A stretch of DNA of 64,000 nucleotides from an uncultured Lachnospiraceae bacterium (GCA_934293375.1 CAKQYS010000003.1:70441-134440), one strand, 5' to 3'; counted from the first letter of the stretch, positions 39,964 to 49,713 are shown. Numbers and translations are program-made. The notes: generated from the sequence alone by a model not told the origin.

Positions 39964-39992
39964 TTGACGCTTTATTGGTTTCCCATTACAAT
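39964..39992 (+). promoter_or_regulatory. Putative sigma-A promoter of tetR (and possibly of the whole tetR-maf-greA-SMC-like gene string)
   Basis: TTGACG - 17 nt - TACAAT. A short inverted repeat GAGAC-TTTTT-GTCTC at 39999-40013 lies just downstream. Confidence 0.65.
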
Positions 39993-40045
39993 AGAAATGA
40001 GACTTTTTGTCTCGGGGGAAATACAAAAGAGTGAGGAAGGCAAAC

Positions 40046-40732
40046 ATGAGAGATCCGGTTAAAGTAAAGAAAGAGATGGAAGAGAAGGATCAAATAATAT
40101 TAGAAGCAGCATTTCAAATATTTGTGGAGAAGAAGATAGAAGCAGTTAGTATGGATGAGATTGCCAGAGCTGCGAATGTGGGAAGAGCAACATTGTTCAG
40201 ACATTATGCCAGTAAACCGGAACTGGTAATTGCTGTGAATACGAAGCAGTGGGGAGATTATCTGAGTGCAGTGGATGCGGTTCGTCCAATTTCTTCCATT
40301 CATGAGATTCCTGCTATTGACAGATTGATTTTCACAATGGACAGTTATATTGATATGTATCAAAAGCGTAAGGATCTGCTGCAGTTTAATGATAATTTCA
40401 ATCATTATGTGAGCCATGCAGGGAGAAATCACGAAAAGCTGCAAGGGTTCCATAACTCTTTGTATTCCGCAGATACAAGATTCCGTTTAATGTTTGAAAA
40501 GGCGAAGGAAGATCATACATTCCGGACAGATATCCCACGGGAGCAGTTCTTCCGCGTGACGGTACACACGATGATGACGGCCTGTGCGTATTATGCAGGT
40601 GGTTTTATCTGGGGTTCGGAAGAGAATAGAGATTATACGGATGAATTGGTATTATTAAAGGATATGATTCTCGGATATGCAACAGCAGGAAACTGTAAGA
40701 AGAAATATCATAAGGAGTCTGCCGGAAAATGA
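40046..40732 (+). CDS. TetR/AcrR-family transcriptional regulator
   Basis: HTH MDEIARAANVGRATLFRHYASK. GAGGAAGG RBS. A consensus-like promoter lies 55 nt upstream. Confidence 0.85.
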   Translation: MRDPVKVKKEMEEKDQIILEAAFQIFVEKKIEAVSMDEIARAANVGRATLFRHYASKPELVIAVNTKQWGDYLSAVDAVRPISSIHEIPAIDRLIFTMDSYIDMYQKRKDLLQFNDNFNHYVSHAGRNHEKLQGFHNSLYSADTRFRLMFEKAKEDHTFRTDIPREQFFRVTVHTMMTACAYYAGGFIWGSEENRDYTDELVLLKDMILGYATAGNCKKKYHKESAGK

Positions 40733-41948: not shown

Positions 41949-43568
41949 ATGGCAGCACTAAAGCATGTAATGATCAATGATATCATAGAGGATCAGAATA
42001 TCCGGATGCAGAATTTACGGAAGTATTATCCGTTTTTTTGTCTGTGCGATACTGCATTTTCCCAGTATAGGGAGGGCAGATATGCAAGGCTTGATATGGG
42101 ATATATCACGATGGCGACTCTACGGTTTTTCATTAATGAGAATAATTTTAATGAGAGGGAGGTCACATACGGTCAGTATGAGACCTTCTTAATTGAGCTG
42201 TTACGACGGGATTACGATCTGAAGGAGACCCCGGAAGAGGAGCGTGCATTAGCAGCATATATATTTGATAAGATCAAGAATGATGGACGAGCATTTGAAT
42301 TCACTTTCTATGACCCGGATACAAAACAGAACAAGACGGCACGTGTAAAGTATATTGACAGTCATATTGTAGATGGCGAGGTCAGGTATCATATTACCTC
42401 AGAAGGTATCGAGTTCTATCTGGATACAAAGGAGATGAAGGAGGAGAGCAAGATCAGTGTACAGCAGCTTCTGCTGGGCAAGCTGATCACGGCAAAGAAC
42501 TTCAAGGGCGGCATCGAAGTGGTCAAGCGGATCAACAGCGAGGTGAGCAAGCTCATTTATGAAAAGCAGGAAGTATTGCATATCTTGAACTACGATGTGT
42601 TTGCGGGTGCAAAAGCCTGCGAGGATTATATGGAAACAGCAGCAAGATGGTTTGAACAGGAACAAAAGCTGTTTACAAAGAACCAACAGCTGATCGAGCA
42701 GGCATTAAAAACAGCGACGGGTGACCGTGATGCAGAGGGCAGGGATGAGTTTTATAAATCATTAGAGGATATTCATACCCTAGAGACAGAGCTTAAGAAG
42801 ACGATCAAGAAACATAGTGATCTGATCGGGGAAACGATTGCTTTGCAGAGTGCATCGGATAAGATTATCAGTAGAGCGAAGTTTCGAAAACTTCGAAATG
42901 TATTTGATTTTAAGGAAAGTCTGTTAAAGGTGCAGAAACAGGATCATCCTGCACTTATGGGAAATGTTCTGGCACCATTGTTTGCACCGCGGCTCAAGAA
43001 GACATTTACTGTCAGAGAGATTGATAATATGCTGACATACAGGCAGGATATGTCAGATCCGGGTGAGAAGATTATAAAGGAAACATTTGATCAGGATTTT
43101 GTATATGAAGATGAGCTGGTGGATCAGAGGATTGCAAGAAACTATGAACGCATTTTTATGGTGCTTCTTGATCAGCTTATGAAGAAACATACATTAGATT
43201 TGAACATACTCAACGGTATATTAGAGATTAAGTTTGGAGAAGAGCTTTTTGTCAACGGTGATTATTATGGATTTCTGTCGCATTTGTCTCAGAAACACTG
43301 TTATGATATGGCGAAACTGTTAGAACGGCAGGATACTTTCCTAGAGGGGATTATCAGTGACAGTATGACTGAAAATGAGAGGGCCAGGTATGGAAATATG
43401 GTATTTGAGATTTCATTTTTACCGCAAGAGAAAATCAATTTAAGCAGCTATGTGACAGAGGTAAAAAAGGCGAGAGGACAGACCTTGCCTAGAGAGCAGA
43501 TGCTTGCAGGGGACGAGCGGTTTGTCGTTACGAATATGCGGTTTTCATTGATTGAGGAGGGAGTATAG
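41949..43568 (+). CDS. MukF/MksF/JetA-like (kleisin-position) subunit of an SMC-like module, 539 aa
   Basis: It is the first gene of a three-gene set with F-E-B order and sizes. The protein is largely helical and charged, with a long central helical region. It starts 21 nt after greA with a GGAGAG RBS. The function is assigned from position and size only. Confidence 0.45.
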   Translation: MAALKHVMINDIIEDQNIRMQNLRKYYPFFCLCDTAFSQYREGRYARLDMGYITMATLRFFINENNFNEREVTYGQYETFLIELLRRDYDLKETPEEERALAAYIFDKIKNDGRAFEFTFYDPDTKQNKTARVKYIDSHIVDGEVRYHITSEGIEFYLDTKEMKEESKISVQQLLLGKLITAKNFKGGIEVVKRINSEVSKLIYEKQEVLHILNYDVFAGAKACEDYMETAARWFEQEQKLFTKNQQLIEQALKTATGDRDAEGRDEFYKSLEDIHTLETELKKTIKKHSDLIGETIALQSASDKIISRAKFRKLRNVFDFKESLLKVQKQDHPALMGNVLAPLFAPRLKKTFTVREIDNMLTYRQDMSDPGEKIIKETFDQDFVYEDELVDQRIARNYERIFMVLLDQLMKKHTLDLNILNGILEIKFGEELFVNGDYYGFLSHLSQKHCYDMAKLLERQDTFLEGIISDSMTENERARYGNMVFEISFLPQEKINLSSYVTEVKKARGQTLPREQMLAGDERFVVTNMRFSLIEEGV

Positions 43569-43569
43569 G

Positions 43570-44286
43570 ATGGACAGTCGAAATCTGGATAAGGCATTGG
43601 ATATCTATGCGAAGCTGATCATGGGCGAAGAAGTCAGGAAAGGTGATCGGGAAAATGGGCATCTGTATGACGAATATTTTCAGAATGCAGAAGTGTATGA
43701 GATTACCGGACAGATCATGAAGAAGCTGAACCTTACAATATATGAGTATCAGGATGCATTGTATCTGACAGCGGGAGAGGGAAATCATGTTTTCGGTTAT
43801 ACCAACGAGGAACTGAAACGGATCATGGGACTGCGGTATAATAAAGAGCTTTATCTGGTTTATTATATTATATATCAGGTTTTGTTGTCGTTTTATAATG
43901 ACTCAGCAGCGTATCAGTTTCAGGAATTCGTGAAGTTGGAAAATGTGTTGGATGAGGTGTCAAAGTCTCTGACGGGTATTCTCAAGGAACTGTCTATCTA
44001 CAATATGGATCAAGTGGAGGAAAACAGTTTTAAGACGATCGCACTGTTGTGGGATGAGTTGCCGACCGCCTCAAAGGAAGACCGGGATAAGCTGCGTGCA
44101 TCGAGAAATTCTCGCGCGGGATTATGTAAGATCGCATTCAATTTCCTGCTGTCACAGGGATTGTTTTTAGAGGTAGAAGACCGGTATTATCCGACCGACC
44201 GGTTTAAAGCATTGGTTGAGAATTATTTTGAGGAATACAGAGGACGGCTTTATGAGGTATTATCAGGGGTGTCTGAGAATGAGTAG
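43570..44286 (+). CDS. MukE/MksE/JetB-like small acidic subunit, 238 aa
   Basis: ATG lies 1 nt after the upstream stop and is preceded by GAGGAGGGA. Its size and its position between the kleisin-like and SMC-like genes match MukE/JetB. Confidence 0.45.
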   Translation: MDSRNLDKALDIYAKLIMGEEVRKGDRENGHLYDEYFQNAEVYEITGQIMKKLNLTIYEYQDALYLTAGEGNHVFGYTNEELKRIMGLRYNKELYLVYYIIYQVLLSFYNDSAAYQFQEFVKLENVLDEVSKSLTGILKELSIYNMDQVEENSFKTIALLWDELPTASKEDRDKLRASRNSRAGLCKIAFNFLLSQGLFLEVEDRYYPTDRFKALVENYFEEYRGRLYEVLSGVSENE

Positions 44287-44300
44287 AAAGGAGAAGCAGG

Positions 44301-47300
44301 ATGCCAAGTATCAATAGAATACGAGTTAATAATGTAAAATATAATTTTGGCACGCAGCAGTACGATGATTTTGTCATGCGTATGTACGGCAGGAATACCT
44401 TGTATGATCTGGCAAATGGTGGTGGAAAGAGTGTGTTGATGCTGCTTCTTTTACAGAACCTGATTCCAAACTGTACACTGGACGAGAAGCAGCCGATCGA
44501 GAAGCTGTTTCGAAATGGAGGGGGCAATACAGTCATTCATTCTCTGATCGAGTGGAAGCTTGACGATGAAGAGAATGGTGAGGGGTATCGTTATATGACG
44601 ACCGGATTCTGTGCGAGGAAGGCAAAGGATCAGGCAGAGGGACAGGAAACTGCGAGAAAGGATACTGCATCAATTGAATATTTTAATTACTGCATCCGGT
44701 ATCGGGAATACAATCGAAATGATATTGTGAATCTGCCACTGTCACAAAATGGAGAACACATTTCATTTACAGGACTGAGAAATTATTTAAAGGATCTTTC
44801 ACGCAAAGATCTGAATCTGGATATTCAGGTGTTTGATCGTAAGGGAGAATATCAAAGATATATTAGTCAGTATGGCCTGTATGAAAGCCATTGGGAGATC
44901 ATTCGTGGAATCAATAAAACCGAGGGACATGTCAGAACATATTTTGAAAGTAATTACAGGACGGCGAGAAAGGTTGTAGAGGATCTGCTGATTGAAGAAA
45001 TCATTGAGAAAGCATATCTGGTGAAGACAGAGCAGAATGAAGATTCCCAGGACATGGCCAAGAATCTGTTGGATATTAAGGACAAACTGATGGAGCTGAC
45101 AAAGAAGAAGCGGGATATTGCAAATTACGACCGTCAGACCGAACTGATCCATGTACTAGAGGGACGGGTGACATCCTTTCTCAATTTATTTGAGCAGCGG
45201 GATAAGATGAAGCAGACCATTGCCAATGTCTATGTGACGGGAAAGGCGGTTACAGAGGAAGATGAGATCAAGCTGGCAGGATTTGAGAAGCAGAAGGAAG
45301 ATAAGCTTAAGGAAAAAGAAAAGAAGTTAAAAGAGTTAGAAGCTCTGAAAATCCGGGAAATGGAGTATGAGAAGGATGCTCTAATGGATGGAATAGAGGA
45401 GCTTTTGCGTTTGGTGGGTGAAAATAAATCTGAATATCAGGAGACTCTTAACGAGCTGAAATGGAAAGAGTCCATGAATGATTATATGGACTATAAAAGG
45501 GATGCTGCAGCAGTTCGTGAAAATGAATCTGTTTTGCGTGCAGCCCAGACGGATTCCAGAACAGATGTATCGAAACTTCGCCAGCTGGCTTATGTAAGAA
45601 AATGTATGAATGATGAGCAGGATGCGGTTGATCAGAAGACGATTCAGACAGAACGGGTGCGCCAGGAGCAGCTGGGAGAAAGATATAAGACAGAGTCAGA
45701 GCAGCTTAGTGAGGCGCAGATCAGTCTGTCTGTTGCGGAAAATGATGTGAAGCGTTGTAAAGAAGAGGCCCGGGAACTTTTGTCTACAATCAGCCAGCTC
45801 AAGTCGAATACCAGCATTTTGATGCTGGCAGATGCGGAAGAACTGATAATTTCAAATGAACAGGCAATTGCGGCATGTAAGAAAACGATAGAGGATGCTG
45901 AGAGCCGGAAGAAGACGCATACGAAGACATATTATGATCAGTTGCATGAAGCAGACAGACTGGAGCTTGGCCTGTCTTCGGCAAAGGCGGATCTGAAGGT
46001 GCGACAGGAGCAGATGGATCGGTATCTGGATAATGCGGACCGCATTCAGAATATGCTGAGAATTTATAATGTGCCGGAGCAAAAGGAACTTTTGTCAGCG
46101 ATCAATAAGCGTTGTATGCAATGTATTGTAGATGTGACCAATAAGCAGGATACCTTAAAGCAGTTGGTAAGGCGGAGAGCAGATCTTGCAGAGGACCGTA
46201 TCATCGGTGAGACAGCTGCTGTCGCAAAGGTGAAGGAATATATCGAGACACGGCATAATGAGAGTGCGGTATCCGGTATGGATTATCTGGCTGCAAGAGA
46301 TACTGCACAGAGGGAACAGCTTTTGGAAGGATATCCATTGCTGCCATATGGTGTTGTAGTTAAGAATTTCGACTTCTTGTCAACAGATGATGCAATCTAT
46401 GAATTGCAGCTTGGCGATTACGCTGTGCCGGTTTTTAGTGAAGCGCTGTTGTATAACCCAATGGGAAGAAATTACGATGATTCCGTAATGTTTATTTCCA
46501 AGGGAAAGATGCATTTCACAGACGAGACACTGCTGAAAAAGGCAAGAGAACAGCTTGAAAATGAAATTAAAGAATGTGAAGAATCCATCAGAAGACTGAC
46601 TGAAATGGGTCTGACATATGAAGAGGATATGGAATATATCAGCAGTCTGGGTGCTTCTGTGTCGATTCAGACAATGGATGCCGTGAATGAAAAGAAAGCG
46701 GAGGTTGTTGCGCTGGAAAAGAAGCAGAATGCATATAAGGATGGATGTCATGATCTGTTGTTGGCGATCGAGCAGGATGAGCAGGCAGTTCAGACTGCAA
46801 GACAGGAACTTGATAAGCTTTTGCAGACAGAGAAGAATCTGGTTGCGGTGAAGGTAGTAAGTGATCGTATTGTGAAACTTGATCAGGAAAAGCAGGACCG
46901 GGAAGCGGATGTAAAGCGTTTGATGCAGACGATAGCCGCTCTTAAGAAGCGTGTTGAGGAGTCCGGCATGGAGTATGATGATGTGACGGGCAGGATTGAG
47001 ACTCTGGAACAGACAGTCAATGCTCGAAGACAGGAATGGCAGAAGCTGTATGCGGATTATTATGTAGATGGCAGCTACGAAATGCTGTTGATGTCGGATG
47101 AGGAACTGAATGCTGCATTCAAGGCAGCGAAAGCGGTATATGAGCGTGAAAACATTGTACTTGCAGATAAGAAGCAGCTGATCGAGACATTGCATCAGAG
47201 TATGAAAAGATTGCAGCGGTCGATTGAACGCCGGGACATCAGTATGGAACAGCTTGCGCAGATGGATGAAGATCATAAGCTGTATACAATTGGCGAGCAG

Positions 47301-48707
47301 GCACTCAATAAGCTGTCTGTCTATGCTGCGAAATTGTCAACGGATGGTGCGCTGTTATCAAATCAGTTAGAGCAGAAGCGAAGTGTGCTGCATCATTTGG
47401 AAGGAAACATTGAACAGTCAGTAAAACAGCTCGAGGAGAAGCACGGAAGCTATACACCGGTTACAGTATCCAGGGAAGAGATTGCACAGGCGATCAGTGA
47501 AGGTGATAAAGTGTTAAAGCGTATTGACCAGGAATACCGGGAAATGGTCAAAGCATACGAACGCAGTGTGAAACAGCATAATAGTATGGTAGAGCTTTAT
47601 AAGGATGTAACCCGAATCATGAAGGTGAATGAGATTTCGCCGAAGGATGCGGTTGTGATTCATGAATCAGAAGACAGAATGCGGAGCCTTTTCGAGGAAA
47701 GCCTGTTGGCATATGACAAGAGTGAGAAAGCGTTAGAGCGCGCGAAGGCGGAGCTTCTTAAGTATAAGTCACATACTGCAGAGACATTGTATAGTATGCA
47801 GGCATTTGAGCTGTCAGAGACAATCGGAAGAGATGTGTCAGTGCCGGAGGATTACGCATCTGCAACGCTTCTGTTGGATAATCTTAAGACAATGATTTCC
47901 TTTATTGAGCTGGAGAAGGATCGTGTAGCGAAGGGCATCTCAGATATGGAATTTATCAAGCATAACTTTGAAAATCAGTGTATCCAGAGATGTAAAGATG
48001 TGAAGACCGAACTGGATAAGCTGCCGGGACTGTCAAGAATTACATTAAATGGTGAGCCGGTGCAAATGGTTGGCCTTACGATTCCATATGTCAAGGAAGA
48101 GTTCATGAAGCAGAAAATGAGTGATTATATAGATGATGTGGTTGCAGGCGCAGATCAGTATGATGATGCGAAAGACCGTATGAAATATATACGGAGCAGG
48201 CTGGTTTTAAAGAAGTTGTTTGGCGTGATCGTTACGGATATGAACGCAGTCAGACTGACTTTGTATAAGCGTGAGCGTATTAAGGAACAGAGCAGATATC
48301 TGCGTTATGAGGAAGCGGTTGGAAGTACCGGACAGTCACAGGGTATTTATATTCAGTTCTTGATCTCCATCATCAATTATATTTCCGGTATGTACGGATC
48401 TAATGTGGAAAATGACAAGAGAACTAAGACAATATTCATTGACAATCCATTTGGTGCAGCGAAAGATATCTATATCTGGGAGCCGATCTTTGCACTTCTG
48501 AAGGCTAATCGTGTACAGCTGATCGTGCCGGCAAGAGGAGCGACACCGGCTATTACGGCACAGTTTGATGTAAATTATACACTGGGGCAGCAGCTGGTTG
48601 GAAAGAAGCAGCAGACGGTTGTTGTAGATTACAGAAGCCAGACTGAGCAGCAGGAGATTGAATACAAAGAATTGGATTACGAGCAGGCAAGCTTTGACTT
48701 CATATAG
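44301..48707 (+). CDS. MukB/MksB/JetC-like SMC-family ATPase, 1468 aa
   Basis: N-terminal P-loop LANGGGKS (aa 37-44). Two long E/K/Q/L-rich coiled-coil stretches flank a compact segment around aa 675-745. The C-terminal head has GSTGQSQG (aa 1341-1348) and TIFIDNPFG (aa 1377-1385). Confidence 0.6.
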   Translation: MPSINRIRVNNVKYNFGTQQYDDFVMRMYGRNTLYDLANGGGKSVLMLLLLQNLIPNCTLDEKQPIEKLFRNGGGNTVIHSLIEWKLDDEENGEGYRYMTTGFCARKAKDQAEGQETARKDTASIEYFNYCIRYREYNRNDIVNLPLSQNGEHISFTGLRNYLKDLSRKDLNLDIQVFDRKGEYQRYISQYGLYESHWEIIRGINKTEGHVRTYFESNYRTARKVVEDLLIEEIIEKAYLVKTEQNEDSQDMAKNLLDIKDKLMELTKKKRDIANYDRQTELIHVLEGRVTSFLNLFEQRDKMKQTIANVYVTGKAVTEEDEIKLAGFEKQKEDKLKEKEKKLKELEALKIREMEYEKDALMDGIEELLRLVGENKSEYQETLNELKWKESMNDYMDYKRDAAAVRENESVLRAAQTDSRTDVSKLRQLAYVRKCMNDEQDAVDQKTIQTERVRQEQLGERYKTESEQLSEAQISLSVAENDVKRCKEEARELLSTISQLKSNTSILMLADAEELIISNEQAIAACKKTIEDAESRKKTHTKTYYDQLHEADRLELGLSSAKADLKVRQEQMDRYLDNADRIQNMLRIYNVPEQKELLSAINKRCMQCIVDVTNKQDTLKQLVRRRADLAEDRIIGETAAVAKVKEYIETRHNESAVSGMDYLAARDTAQREQLLEGYPLLPYGVVVKNFDFLSTDDAIYELQLGDYAVPVFSEALLYNPMGRNYDDSVMFISKGKMHFTDETLLKKAREQLENEIKECEESIRRLTEMGLTYEEDMEYISSLGASVSIQTMDAVNEKKAEVVALEKKQNAYKDGCHDLLLAIEQDEQAVQTARQELDKLLQTEKNLVAVKVVSDRIVKLDQEKQDREADVKRLMQTIAALKKRVEESGMEYDDVTGRIETLEQTVNARRQEWQKLYADYYVDGSYEMLLMSDEELNAAFKAAKAVYERENIVLADKKQLIETLHQSMKRLQRSIERRDISMEQLAQMDEDHKLYTIGEQALNKLSVYAAKLSTDGALLSNQLEQKRSVLHHLEGNIEQSVKQLEEKHGSYTPVTVSREEIAQAISEGDKVLKRIDQEYREMVKAYERSVKQHNSMVELYKDVTRIMKVNEISPKDAVVIHESEDRMRSLFEESLLAYDKSEKALERAKAELLKYKSHTAETLYSMQAFELSETIGRDVSVPEDYASATLLLDNLKTMISFIELEKDRVAKGISDMEFIKHNFENQCIQRCKDVKTELDKLPGLSRITLNGEPVQMVGLTIPYVKEEFMKQKMSDYIDDVVAGADQYDDAKDRMKYIRSRLVLKKLFGVIVTDMNAVRLTLYKRERIKEQSRYLRYEEAVGSTGQSQGIYIQFLISIINYISGMYGSNVENDKRTKTIFIDNPFGAAKDIYIWEPIFALLKANRVQLIVPARGATPAITAQFDVNYTLGQQLVGKKQQTVVVDYRSQTEQQEIEYKELDYEQASFDFI

Positions 48708-48725
48708 AATCCATTGGATTCTATA
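48703..48725. terminator. Perfect palindrome containing the stop codons of both convergent genes
   Basis: TATAGAATCCA-T-TGGATTCTATA. The TAG of the SMC-like gene (48705-48707) and the TAG of the asparaginase gene (complement of 48721-48723) both lie inside it. Confidence 0.5.
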
Positions 48726-49713
48726 GAAGTCCGAGCACAAGCTGCATATAGGCATCTGCCGGTGTCATGACCGGGAGTAATGTCAGATGAAGAGAGGTGT
48801 AAGCCTGTGTACTTGCGTAAGGTGTGCAGGCGGGGTCAGTGCCAAGCACATAGACCGGCACCTCTTTTTTGTGTGCAGATATGGCAAAATCACGAAACGC
48901 TGAGTCCTTTGTCGGCAGTGTACCAGAGTGATAAGTGAGTAGTAGTATGGCTCGGATATCGTCTGTGACGGGAGGGTAATACATGCCGGGCATGACAGTC
49001 AGTACCAGTATATCCGGCTGGCGGGGCTGCAGCAGTGATATGTTTTCGGATACGGCATTTGTCTCAGAATGGTATGCCAAAGACTGTTCTGTCTGTTCGT
49101 AATACGGTTGTCCGTCCCGCTTTTTTGGAAGAATACGGCAGACATATTGCCCGTGCAGACTGGAAACCGTATCTTCATATAGCGTATGAGGCATCAGACT
49201 GTTTGCGTGGTAAATGTACACCGGTGCAATGCTGTCGTCTGACATGTTGTTCTGATAAGATACATATACGCCAGTTTGCGGCATATGGCGGACGAAAGCG
49301 ACTGCTGATGCAAAATTTGCAAAACCATTAGAACGGGGATCATCCAGAACATAATTAGCAGAGACCATCACGATAGGCAAGCTGGAAACCGGACATAGAC
49401 GGCAGAGGGCCGCAGCGGTATAGTGCAGGGTGTCGGTGCCGTGCGTGATCAGGATGGCATCGTAATGCCTGTCTTCAGCCAAATGCTGGCGGATACATTG
49501 ATATAGAGTGAGGATGTGAGACATATTCAGTTCTTCACTCAGAATGACATAGGGGGAGTCGGTAGTAAATACCACAGGTTCAAGATCAAATGCAGATTCA
49601 TAATCTGTATATGCCGATAAAAGCTGGCTGCATTGTGCCGGATCGGTATTGATGAATCCATTTTGCGTAGTGGATCCAATTGTACCACCGGTATAGATCA
49701 ATAAAATCTTCAT
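48721..49713 (-). CDS. L-asparaginase (type I-like)
   Basis: N-terminal LLIYTGGTIGS and ITHGTDTL motifs. 330 aa. Confidence 0.8.
   Translation of the reverse strand: MKILLIYTGGTIGSTTQNGFINTDPAQCSQLLSAYTDYESAFDLEPVVFTTDSPYVILSEELNMSHILTLYQCIRQHLAEDRHYDAILITHGTDTLHYTAAALCRLCPVSSLPIVMVSANYVLDDPRSNGFANFASAVAFVRHMPQTGVYVSYQNNMSDDSIAPVYIYHANSLMPHTLYEDTVSSLHGQYVCRILPKKRDGQPYYEQTEQSLAYHSETNAVSENISLLQPRQPDILVLTVMPGMYYPPVTDDIRAILLLTYHSGTLPTKDSAFRDFAISAHKKEVPVYVLGTDPACTPYASTQAYTSLHLTLLPVMTPADAYMQLVLGLL

Follow-up and report, generated by a model that had tools for sequence, protein, structure and literature searches.

A three-gene module in the genome of an uncultured Lachnospiraceae bacterium encodes, we are highly confident, the JetABC core of a type III Wadjet system without the nuclease gene jetD. 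The module lies on the + strand at positions 41949-48707 of a 64,000-nucleotide (nt) stretch of DNA (GCA_934293375.1 CAKQYS010000003.1:70441-134440), which in its full length is referred to here as the window. On balance we favor the view that JetD was lost from this core and that the remaining proteins now act as a nuclease-free loop extruder serving the chromosome. The three genes, in window coordinates, are as follows.

41949-43568, + strand: jetA3, a MukF/JetA-type kleisin of 539 amino acids (aa), ATG start
43570-44286, + strand: jetB3, a KITE subunit of 238 aa counted from its ATG, Pfam DUF6063
44301-48707, + strand: jetC3, an ABC ATPase of 1468 aa resembling the structural maintenance of chromosomes (SMC) proteins

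Identity and architecture of the three proteins

The three open reading frames (ORFs) are co-directional and separated by gaps of only 1 nt and 14 nt, and independent gene calls on identical public contigs again gave products of 539, 238 and 1468 aa. A GGAG-type ribosome-binding site precedes each start, that of jetB lying inside the 3' end of jetA, and the longest jetB ORF begins upstream of the ATG, at TTG 43552. A first-pass annotation, made from the sequence alone, had described the same tightly coupled ORFs with the same sizes and gaps, and had likened their order and sizes to mukFEB and jetABC.

Each protein matches a type III Wadjet model of PADLOC: JetA matches JetA3 (PDLC00560, E 2.7e-207, model positions 3-501 of 511), JetB matches JetB3 (PDLC00571, E 2.5e-104), and JetC matches JetC3 over its entire length (PDLC00581, E 0, 1762 bits, residues 1-1468 against 1-1473 of the model). 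The same three models also match a complete JetDABC locus of the Faecalimonas type. JetB belongs in addition to Pfam PF19539, DUF6063 (E 1.9e-47, 162 bits against a cut-off of 27), which is the sole Pfam match among the three; Pfam holds no family for JetA or JetC, and NCBIfam recognized none of the proteins. Even with E values up to 1 allowed, Pfam and NCBIfam gave no match of the three to the MukF/MukE/MukB or MksF/MksE/MksB families. Against PDB chains, sequence and profile searches returned no JetABC or MukEF chain for JetA or JetB, and for full-length JetC they returned coiled-coil matches only, with no SMC head. Examination of the ORFs, together with Pfam and PADLOC, revealed no nuclease domain in any of the three products, so that none had been overlooked at first reading.

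Because type III is very distantly related to the type I and type II Wadjet and MukBEF complexes whose structures are solved, we compared folds instead, using AlphaFold2 models built on alignments assembled from protein-search hits. The JetB model (predicted local distance difference test score, pLDDT, 76) consists of two winged-helix-like halves, and its top Foldseek matches in the PDB are the JetB proteins of P. aeruginosa and E. coli (8dk1_F and 8as8_C), MukE (3rpu_G and 9gmb_E), and a chain of the Nse1-Nse3-Nse4 complex (7dg2_A). Based on its winged-helix halves and these fold matches, JetB is a KITE protein. The JetA model (pLDDT 70) has a winged-helix region at each end, with a helical bundle and then a disordered, low-confidence linker between them; its top matches are Wadjet-II JetA (9qe0_E, E 8e-6) and MukF (9gm7_C, 7nz2_C1 and 3euh_A). 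Its N-terminal part, which corresponds to the dimer-forming region of JetA and MukF, is highly conserved. JetA3 is a kleisin of the MukF kind. JetC3 is an ABC ATPase that resembles SMC proteins and has the following elements on the + strand.

44412-44432, + strand: Walker A (P-loop) ANGGGKS, JetC aa 38-44
45048-46295, + strand: first coiled-coil arm, about aa 250-665, limits approximate
46323-46535, + strand: hinge-like non-coiled segment, aa 675-745
46549-47900, + strand: second coiled-coil arm, about aa 750-1200, limits approximate
48321-48344, + strand: signature-like motif GSTGQSQG, JetC aa 1341-1348
48429-48455, + strand: Walker-B-like motif TIFIDNPFG, JetC aa 1377-1385, with Asp followed by Asn, not Glu

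Conservation among 56 JetC orthologues, measured per column, reaches 80-95% in the two head halves and 36-62% in the arms. In an alignment of 35 type III JetC proteins that includes JetD-bearing systems, N39, G42 and K43 of Walker A never vary, and conservation of G40 and G41 is 90% or higher. N205 and E208 of an INKTEG motif (44910-44927, aa 204-209) are invariant in the same set. S1342 and G1344 of the signature-like motif do not vary across type III, and the Bacillaceae JetC3 proteins have SGGE or SGGQ. D1381, N1382, P1383 and F1384 of the Walker-B-like motif are present in 35/35 sequences, JetD-bearing or JetD-less. SMC, MukB and Rad50 carry D-E at Walker B, the Glu being the catalytic residue in canonical SMC ATPases. 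The DNPF form suggests a non-canonical chemistry of ATP hydrolysis in type III Wadjet, and the INKTEG motif is perhaps the equivalent of a Q-loop that supplies an acidic residue.

The first arm is 43-54% E/K/Q/L/R with few Pro or Gly residues, shows low column conservation, and matches myosin and SMC4; the second, for which residue composition also speaks, matches the coiled coils of myosin, SMC6, SMC3 and MukB over profile positions of about 730-1165. The segment between them contains GYPLLPYGVVV (46329-46361), and the motif YPLxPYGVVV (aa 677-687) is common to the window JetC and the JetC3 of B. bombysepticus. Two residues of this region, G659 and P679, show 90% or higher conservation among type III JetC proteins. 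A profile restricted to the N-terminal head matched an ABC-F nucleotide-binding domain at E 2.9e-5, and its match to the MukB head was weak (E 0.033). Against TIGR02168, SMC_prok_B, JetC scored 13.8 bits, the cut-off being 567.35, and the score derived from coiled-coil regions only. Motifs, conservation profile and coiled-coil matches thus agree on the SMC layout read earlier from the translation, with split heads, two arms and a hinge-like segment. An antisense ORF of 298 aa, Leu/Ile/Phe-rich and of low complexity, runs through the coiled-coil region on the minus strand (46380-47276); it is almost certainly not a gene, its composition being that expected opposite E/K/Q-rich codons.

Two other identities for JetC were considered and ruled out. 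A Rad50-type zinc hook would require a conserved CxxC, and the sole CxxC in JetC (CMQC, aa 605-608) is not conserved among orthologues; the neighbors, moreover, are a kleisin and a KITE protein, not Mre11/SbcD. The best Lamassu LmuB model gave E 0.3 and 7.2 bits.

That the module is a divergent, undescribed SMC system, or an ATPase of the Rad50/SbcC, RecN or Lamassu type that merely has unrelated genes beside it, is scarcely credible. Pfam and NCBIfam are indeed blank for JetA and JetC, and against solved structures the SMC-type matches are limited to the arm coiled coils and the weak MukB head, but the full-length PADLOC matches are shared with complete JetDABC relatives, the partners have kleisin and KITE folds, and neither a conserved zinc hook nor a credible LmuB match is present. 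The first-pass annotation had offered an undescribed SMC family and a nuclease-less Wadjet derivative among its options. The former gives way to an already named family, type III Wadjet, with JetB in DUF6063; the latter is borne out by the full-length PADLOC matches, the kleisin and KITE folds of the 539- and 238-aa proteins, and the absence of JetD from the locus.

Expected place and absence of jetD

Complete type III Wadjet loci have the order jetD-jetA-jetB-jetC, with jetD directly upstream of jetA. This order was observed in 6/6 outgroup loci sampled without reference to JetD (L069, L070, L071, L075/76, L092 and L094). On two Bacillaceae megaplasmids, reached by tblastn with JetC, the upstream gene is annotated 'JetD domain-containing' and 'DUF2220', respectively; in the metagenomic lineages L071, L075/76, L092 and L094, reached through distant JetB representatives, PF09983 JetD_C lies directly upstream of jetA. 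Every JetD3 gene that we encountered adjoins jetABC and usually overlaps jetA. In a Halanaerobiaceae metagenome-assembled genome (MAG; L086:2161-7699) the JetD3 gene follows jetC instead of preceding jetA, and the type III gene order is consequently not absolutely fixed.

Since jetD normally precedes jetA, its absence had to be checked upstream of the module. No jetD gene is found there in the window: greA ends 21 nt before jetA and is itself preceded by maf and a TetR-family gene. With four JetD3 proteins as queries, tblastn gave no match in the 64-kb window, nor in 72 JetD-less loci searched together with flanks of up to 10 kb. The four queries find one another even over the deepest splits, at 24-30% identity (E 2e-5 to 1e-36), and the PADLOC JetD3 models recognize all four. 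A PADLOC scan of the 47 other proteins in the window found no JetD, only cross-matches to ABC transporters, and among the families listed for the upstream neighbors of 39 JetD-less loci there is neither a JetD nor a recombinase. The first-pass annotation had also concluded that JetD is missing, and these searches sustain that conclusion; its argument, that there is no room for the gene downstream, fails, as it considered the wrong side of the operon.

A JetD-type Toprim nuclease encoded elsewhere in the genome could act in trans, and the module would then be one half of a split Wadjet system. Our view extends to 64 kb here and to at most 10 kb of flank in relatives, and the position of jetD in L086 shows that type III order can vary. 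We nonetheless consider this arrangement quite improbable. A pattern derived from the four JetD3 proteins, of limited sensitivity, retrieved 12 loci from 185,579 species genomes, and 0/12 came from assemblies that hold a JetD-less triplet; both Lachnospiraceae loci among them are linked to their own jetABC. That every JetD3 gene encountered adjoins jetABC, and that the absence from the flanks is uniform across about 70 loci, likewise argue against a separately encoded partner.

Without JetD the four-gene definition fails, and the module is therefore not a Wadjet system as defined. Defense-system finders demand all four genes, so it is not expected to be reported as one.

Distribution, selection and genomic setting

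A scan of one genome per species identified at least 64 loci with JetA relatives at 45-78% identity, mostly labeled Lachnospiraceae. Labeled carriers of the JetD-less locus include Coprococcus hominis CLA-AA-H212 (NZ_JAJEQT01), Wujia and Eubacterium sp. MSJ-21 (JAHLPZ01). As far as each contig permits, the loci show the A-B-C triplet and no JetD within 10 kb. Four further JetD-less metagenomic lineages (L072-L074, L077 and L078) have JetB proteins of about 46-52% identity, one with ybaB-recR upstream of the module and another with tatD-ksgA. In the protein database at least 1768 JetC clusters (90% identity) were found at E up to 1e-5 among 8000 candidates scored; the best 120 of the 1768 are 47-100% identical to the window JetC and, where named, are called hypothetical. 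Some MAGs with a Firmicute-type locus (L009, L013, L030, L052 and L056) are labeled 'uncultured Bacteroides sp.', and these are probably mislabeled or mis-binned assemblies.

The nearest JetD-bearing lineage consists of Faecalimonas umbilicata and a related MAG, whose JetA, JetB and JetC match the same PADLOC sub-models as the window proteins and are of similar size (516, 238 and 1470 aa versus 539, 238 and 1468 aa). Neighbor-joining trees were computed from JetC alone and from concatenated JetA, JetB and JetC (2198 columns, 35 taxa). In these trees all JetD-less loci fall into a single clade surrounded by JetD-bearing lineages (bootstrap 69/100), and this clade groups with its two nearest JetD-bearing lineages with a bootstrap of 94/100. 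A single loss of jetD in the ancestor of the clade is the simplest reading of the tree.

All three ORFs are full length across the clade, in about 60 species. In ten closely related JetD-less pairs, the ratio of nonsynonymous to synonymous substitution rates (dN/dS) was 0.016-0.070 for JetA, 0.00-0.083 for JetB and 0.022-0.093 for JetC, with 0.005-0.065 for the adjacent malic-enzyme gene. In a JetD-bearing pair, JetABC gave 0.044-0.063 and JetD itself 0.16. Four public copies from the window's own species are 100% identical, and against the nearest species dS is saturated; the evidence for selection consequently applies to the clade and not to the window strain. The low ratios point to strong purifying selection on all three genes, and we regard it as very probable that the module is functional and under selection.

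Two relatives, L026 (11524-16128) and L027 at the equivalent position, carry an ABC-transporter ATPase, a permease, a membrane protein and an unclassified 417-aa ORF between jetA and jetB on the same strand; in both, the three jet genes are intact, with dN/dS of 0.04-0.07. In L037 and L054 the jetA-jetB gap is about 780 nt. A decaying Wadjet remnant, left functionless by the deletion of jetD, would explain why the defining effector gene is gone. It is a very remote prospect given the full-length ORFs in about 60 species, the low dN/dS, the invariant ATPase motifs with heads conserved at 80-95%, and genes that stay intact and constrained in L026 and L027 despite the insertion.

The window as a whole is core chromosome, with genes for ATP synthase, Sua5, RpiB, NAPRTase and MecA, and neither GC content nor skew shows an anomaly across the module relative to its flanks. 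Immediately upstream are three genes co-oriented with jetABC, separated from one another and from jetA by successive gaps of 31, 9 and 21 nt. They occupy the place that jetD usually holds in complete type III loci.

40007-40732, + strand: TetR-family gene, PF00440
40764-41405, + strand: maf, PF02545
41415-41927, + strand: greA, PF03449/PF01272

L003 likewise has greA directly before jetA. The only promoter-like site upstream of the block that matches at 10 of 12 positions on the + strand lies at 39964-39992, ahead of the TetR gene, and no terminator-like site is present in the greA-jetA interval. Co-transcription is therefore possible, and TetR-maf-greA-jetABC may form a six-gene transcription unit. 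Downstream, the convergent asparaginase gene that was noticed at first reading (48721-49713, minus strand, PF00710) ends 14 nt past the jetC stop. A perfect 19-nt palindrome, TAGAATCCA-T-TGGATTCTA, spans 48705-48723, and its ends are the stop codons of the two convergent genes; no T-tract follows it and it was not scored as terminator-like.

Among 39 JetD-less loci, the two upstream neighbors are housekeeping genes, those for FBA aldolase, CpXC, LemA, thioredoxin, YbaB-RecR, SSB and CarD, with KsgA elsewhere. Pairwise JetC identity correlates with that of the linked malic enzyme (Spearman 0.75, 630 pairs), and this co-divergence fits a long vertical residence.

In 36 relatives (L004-L036 and others; for example L033:16702-17580) a radical-SAM gene of about 292 aa follows jetC after about 20 nt on the same strand, in a conserved block in which the malic-enzyme gene comes next. 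Its product has a CxxxCxxC motif and partial matches, well below the cut-offs, to the Rv2578c and PA0069 radical-SAM families. The gene is absent from the window, from L001 and L002, and from a subclade with 47-49% JetC identity, and in L058-L060 the Cys motif of the homologue is gone. The gene may encode a functional partner, or its position may only reflect conserved synteny with the malic-enzyme gene. As a replacement effector it was set aside, given its absence from the window and closest relatives and the loss of the motif in L058-L060. Radical-SAM genes also occur near JetD-bearing loci: a SPASM-type gene directly follows jetC in L071 (12740-13618), and another type lies two genes upstream of jetD in the Faecalimonas locus L075 (2020-3093). 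The radical-SAM gene found in the JetD-less clade is a homologue of neither, and their proximity is probably a coincidence in the radical-SAM-rich Clostridia.

This setting bears on the possibility that the module still defends against plasmids or other mobile elements, without a dedicated nuclease. Small circular DNA might be fully extruded and entrapped, with its replication, segregation or expression blocked, as proposed for Smc5/6; alternatively, the trapped DNA might be passed to a general cellular nuclease. The Wadjet ancestry is unambiguous, the match in subunit sizes to the JetD-bearing sister suggests that the DNA-sensing machinery is unchanged, the N-terminal part of JetA that forms dimers in MukF and JetA is highly conserved, and the module seems to be patchily distributed within the family. 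That SMC complexes may compact or silence circular DNA has also been discussed (PMC10586767). However, type I restriction and cleavage require JetD, the loci lie outside defense islands and mobile-element contexts, and the module co-diverges with neighboring housekeeping genes whose dN/dS is equally low. We consider a defensive role unlikely, if well worth keeping in mind.

Function, origin and comparison with known systems

The remaining account, a nuclease-free motor acting on the chromosome, proceeds by analogy with type I Wadjet. Two JetC proteins, a JetA dimer and JetB dimers would assemble into a dimeric SMC ring complex. This JetABC-III complex would bind and hydrolyze ATP and extrude DNA loops, as type I JetABC does without JetD, and the captured DNA would stay uncut, since a complex with no nuclease subunit cannot cleave it. 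The module would then be an accessory, MksBEF-like motor for chromosome organization or segregation, domesticated independently and in this case from type III Wadjet. The housekeeping context, vertical inheritance and constraint are the basis for this proposed chromosome-organizing role; the housekeeping setting and constraint make an accessory condensin role the most likely one, and a second condensin, another option of the first-pass annotation, is what we infer to be the most likely functional consequence of nuclease loss. For a chromosome-directed, condensin-like role as opposed to defense, we would put the chances at close to even.

Published work provides the elements of this account. 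Type I JetABC without JetD hydrolyzes ATP, extrudes loops and stalls on circular DNA, and its cleavage of DNA is strictly JetD-dependent (10.1101/2024.02.17.580791). MksBEF is regarded as a JetABCD derivative that arose after loss of JetD, and contributes to chromosome organization (PMC10586767). More generally, MukBEF and MksBEF have been proposed to descend from a Wadjet complex that lost its nuclease and was retained for chromosome maintenance (PMC10586767; 10.1101/2025.03.10.642339). Our literature search found no mention of DUF6063, of JetD-less type III modules or of Wadjet-derived SMC complexes in Lachnospiraceae.

The type III Wadjet systems of Bacillus thuringiensis/B. bombysepticus, Pontibacillus and Faecalimonas umbilicata have homologous JetA3, JetB3 and JetC3 of the same length, and share with the window module the A-B-C order, the tight coupling and the unusual DNPF Walker B. 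The window module differs in that jetD, the gene for the PF09983/DUF2220 Toprim nuclease, is missing both from the start of the operon and from the rest of the 64 kb, and without JetD it would not be expected to cleave DNA by the Wadjet mechanism.

The closest functional analogy is offered by MksBEF (Pseudomonas aeruginosa PAO1; mycobacterial MksB), which is likewise a nuclease-free kleisin-KITE-SMC triplet, believed to have arisen from Wadjet when JetD/MksG was lost and to work on the chromosome in addition to Smc-ScpAB. Its kinship is with type I Wadjet and MukBEF, and it falls into Pfam families of the DUF3375/DUF4194/DUF3584 type. In contrast, the window proteins have no detectable sequence similarity to those families, and they come from a Firmicute host and a separate, type III loss event. 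By analogy, then, the module appears most like MksBEF in function without being a member of the MksBEF/MukBEF sequence families, and it would have been derived independently, from a different Wadjet type and in a different phylum.

Enterobacterial MukBEF has the same kleisin-KITE-SMC order and similar sizes (MukB is 1486 aa), and it provides the fold matches to MukF and MukE and the weak match to the MukB head; the window proteins nevertheless have no sequence-level membership in its families. In its hosts MukBEF is the main condensin in place of Smc-ScpAB, and its partners are MatP and topoisomerase IV. Smc-ScpAB itself shares the general SMC-kleisin-KITE architecture and presumed loop extrusion. 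It is distinguished by JetC scoring far below the SMC_prok_B cut-off, by JetA being a 539-aa kleisin of MukF type and not ScpA, and by JetB being a DUF6063 protein. A search for smc by its GPNGSGKSN motif in 1.58 Mb of locus DNA found none, a result that is uninformative for whole genomes.

Several points weigh against a chromosomal motor that arose by a single loss of jetD. The mechanistic data come from type I Wadjet, so that the function of type III is taken by analogy, and with Asn at the position of the catalytic Glu the ATPase and motor activity of type III cannot simply be assumed from type I. Bootstrap support for one loss is moderate (69/100) and comes from neighbor-joining only, and the absence of JetD covers 64 kb here and up to 10 kb of flank in relatives. 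JetABC is equally constrained in the JetD-bearing sister pair, and constraint alone therefore cannot separate a condensin from a defense system. Finally, the clade was seen in only a subset of Lachnospiraceae (at least 64 species representatives), and such a distribution would suit an accessory role no less than a core one.

The domestication of Wadjet is already an established hypothesis; what is new is a polarized, widespread example with a living JetD-bearing sister. The previously known cases are, to our knowledge, of old date, and no Wadjet ancestor can be identified for them. In the present case the direction of change is directly legible, as JetD-bearing outgroups and the JetD-bearing Faecalimonas sister bracket a large JetD-less clade. 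We tentatively propose, at slightly less than even confidence, that in a clade of gut Lachnospiraceae a type III Wadjet system was independently turned into an SMC complex that serves the chromosome and has no nuclease; this would be a third, Firmicute case of domestication. If the module is a mere accessory condensin, the finding is solid but incremental; more radically, it may in some genomes have replaced Smc-ScpAB, or may restrict plasmids by entrapment alone. Public records name JetA and JetC as hypothetical proteins, so that an SMC complex widespread in abundant bacteria of the human and animal gut is effectively unannotated. The JetDABC locus of the Faecalimonas type and the JetD-less JetABC, which match the same hidden Markov sub-models, form a before-and-after pair. 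They amount to a natural experiment on what changes in an SMC motor once it is no longer an immune sensor, on whether JetABC-III still measures DNA circles, and on whether the Faecalimonas JetD can be added back.

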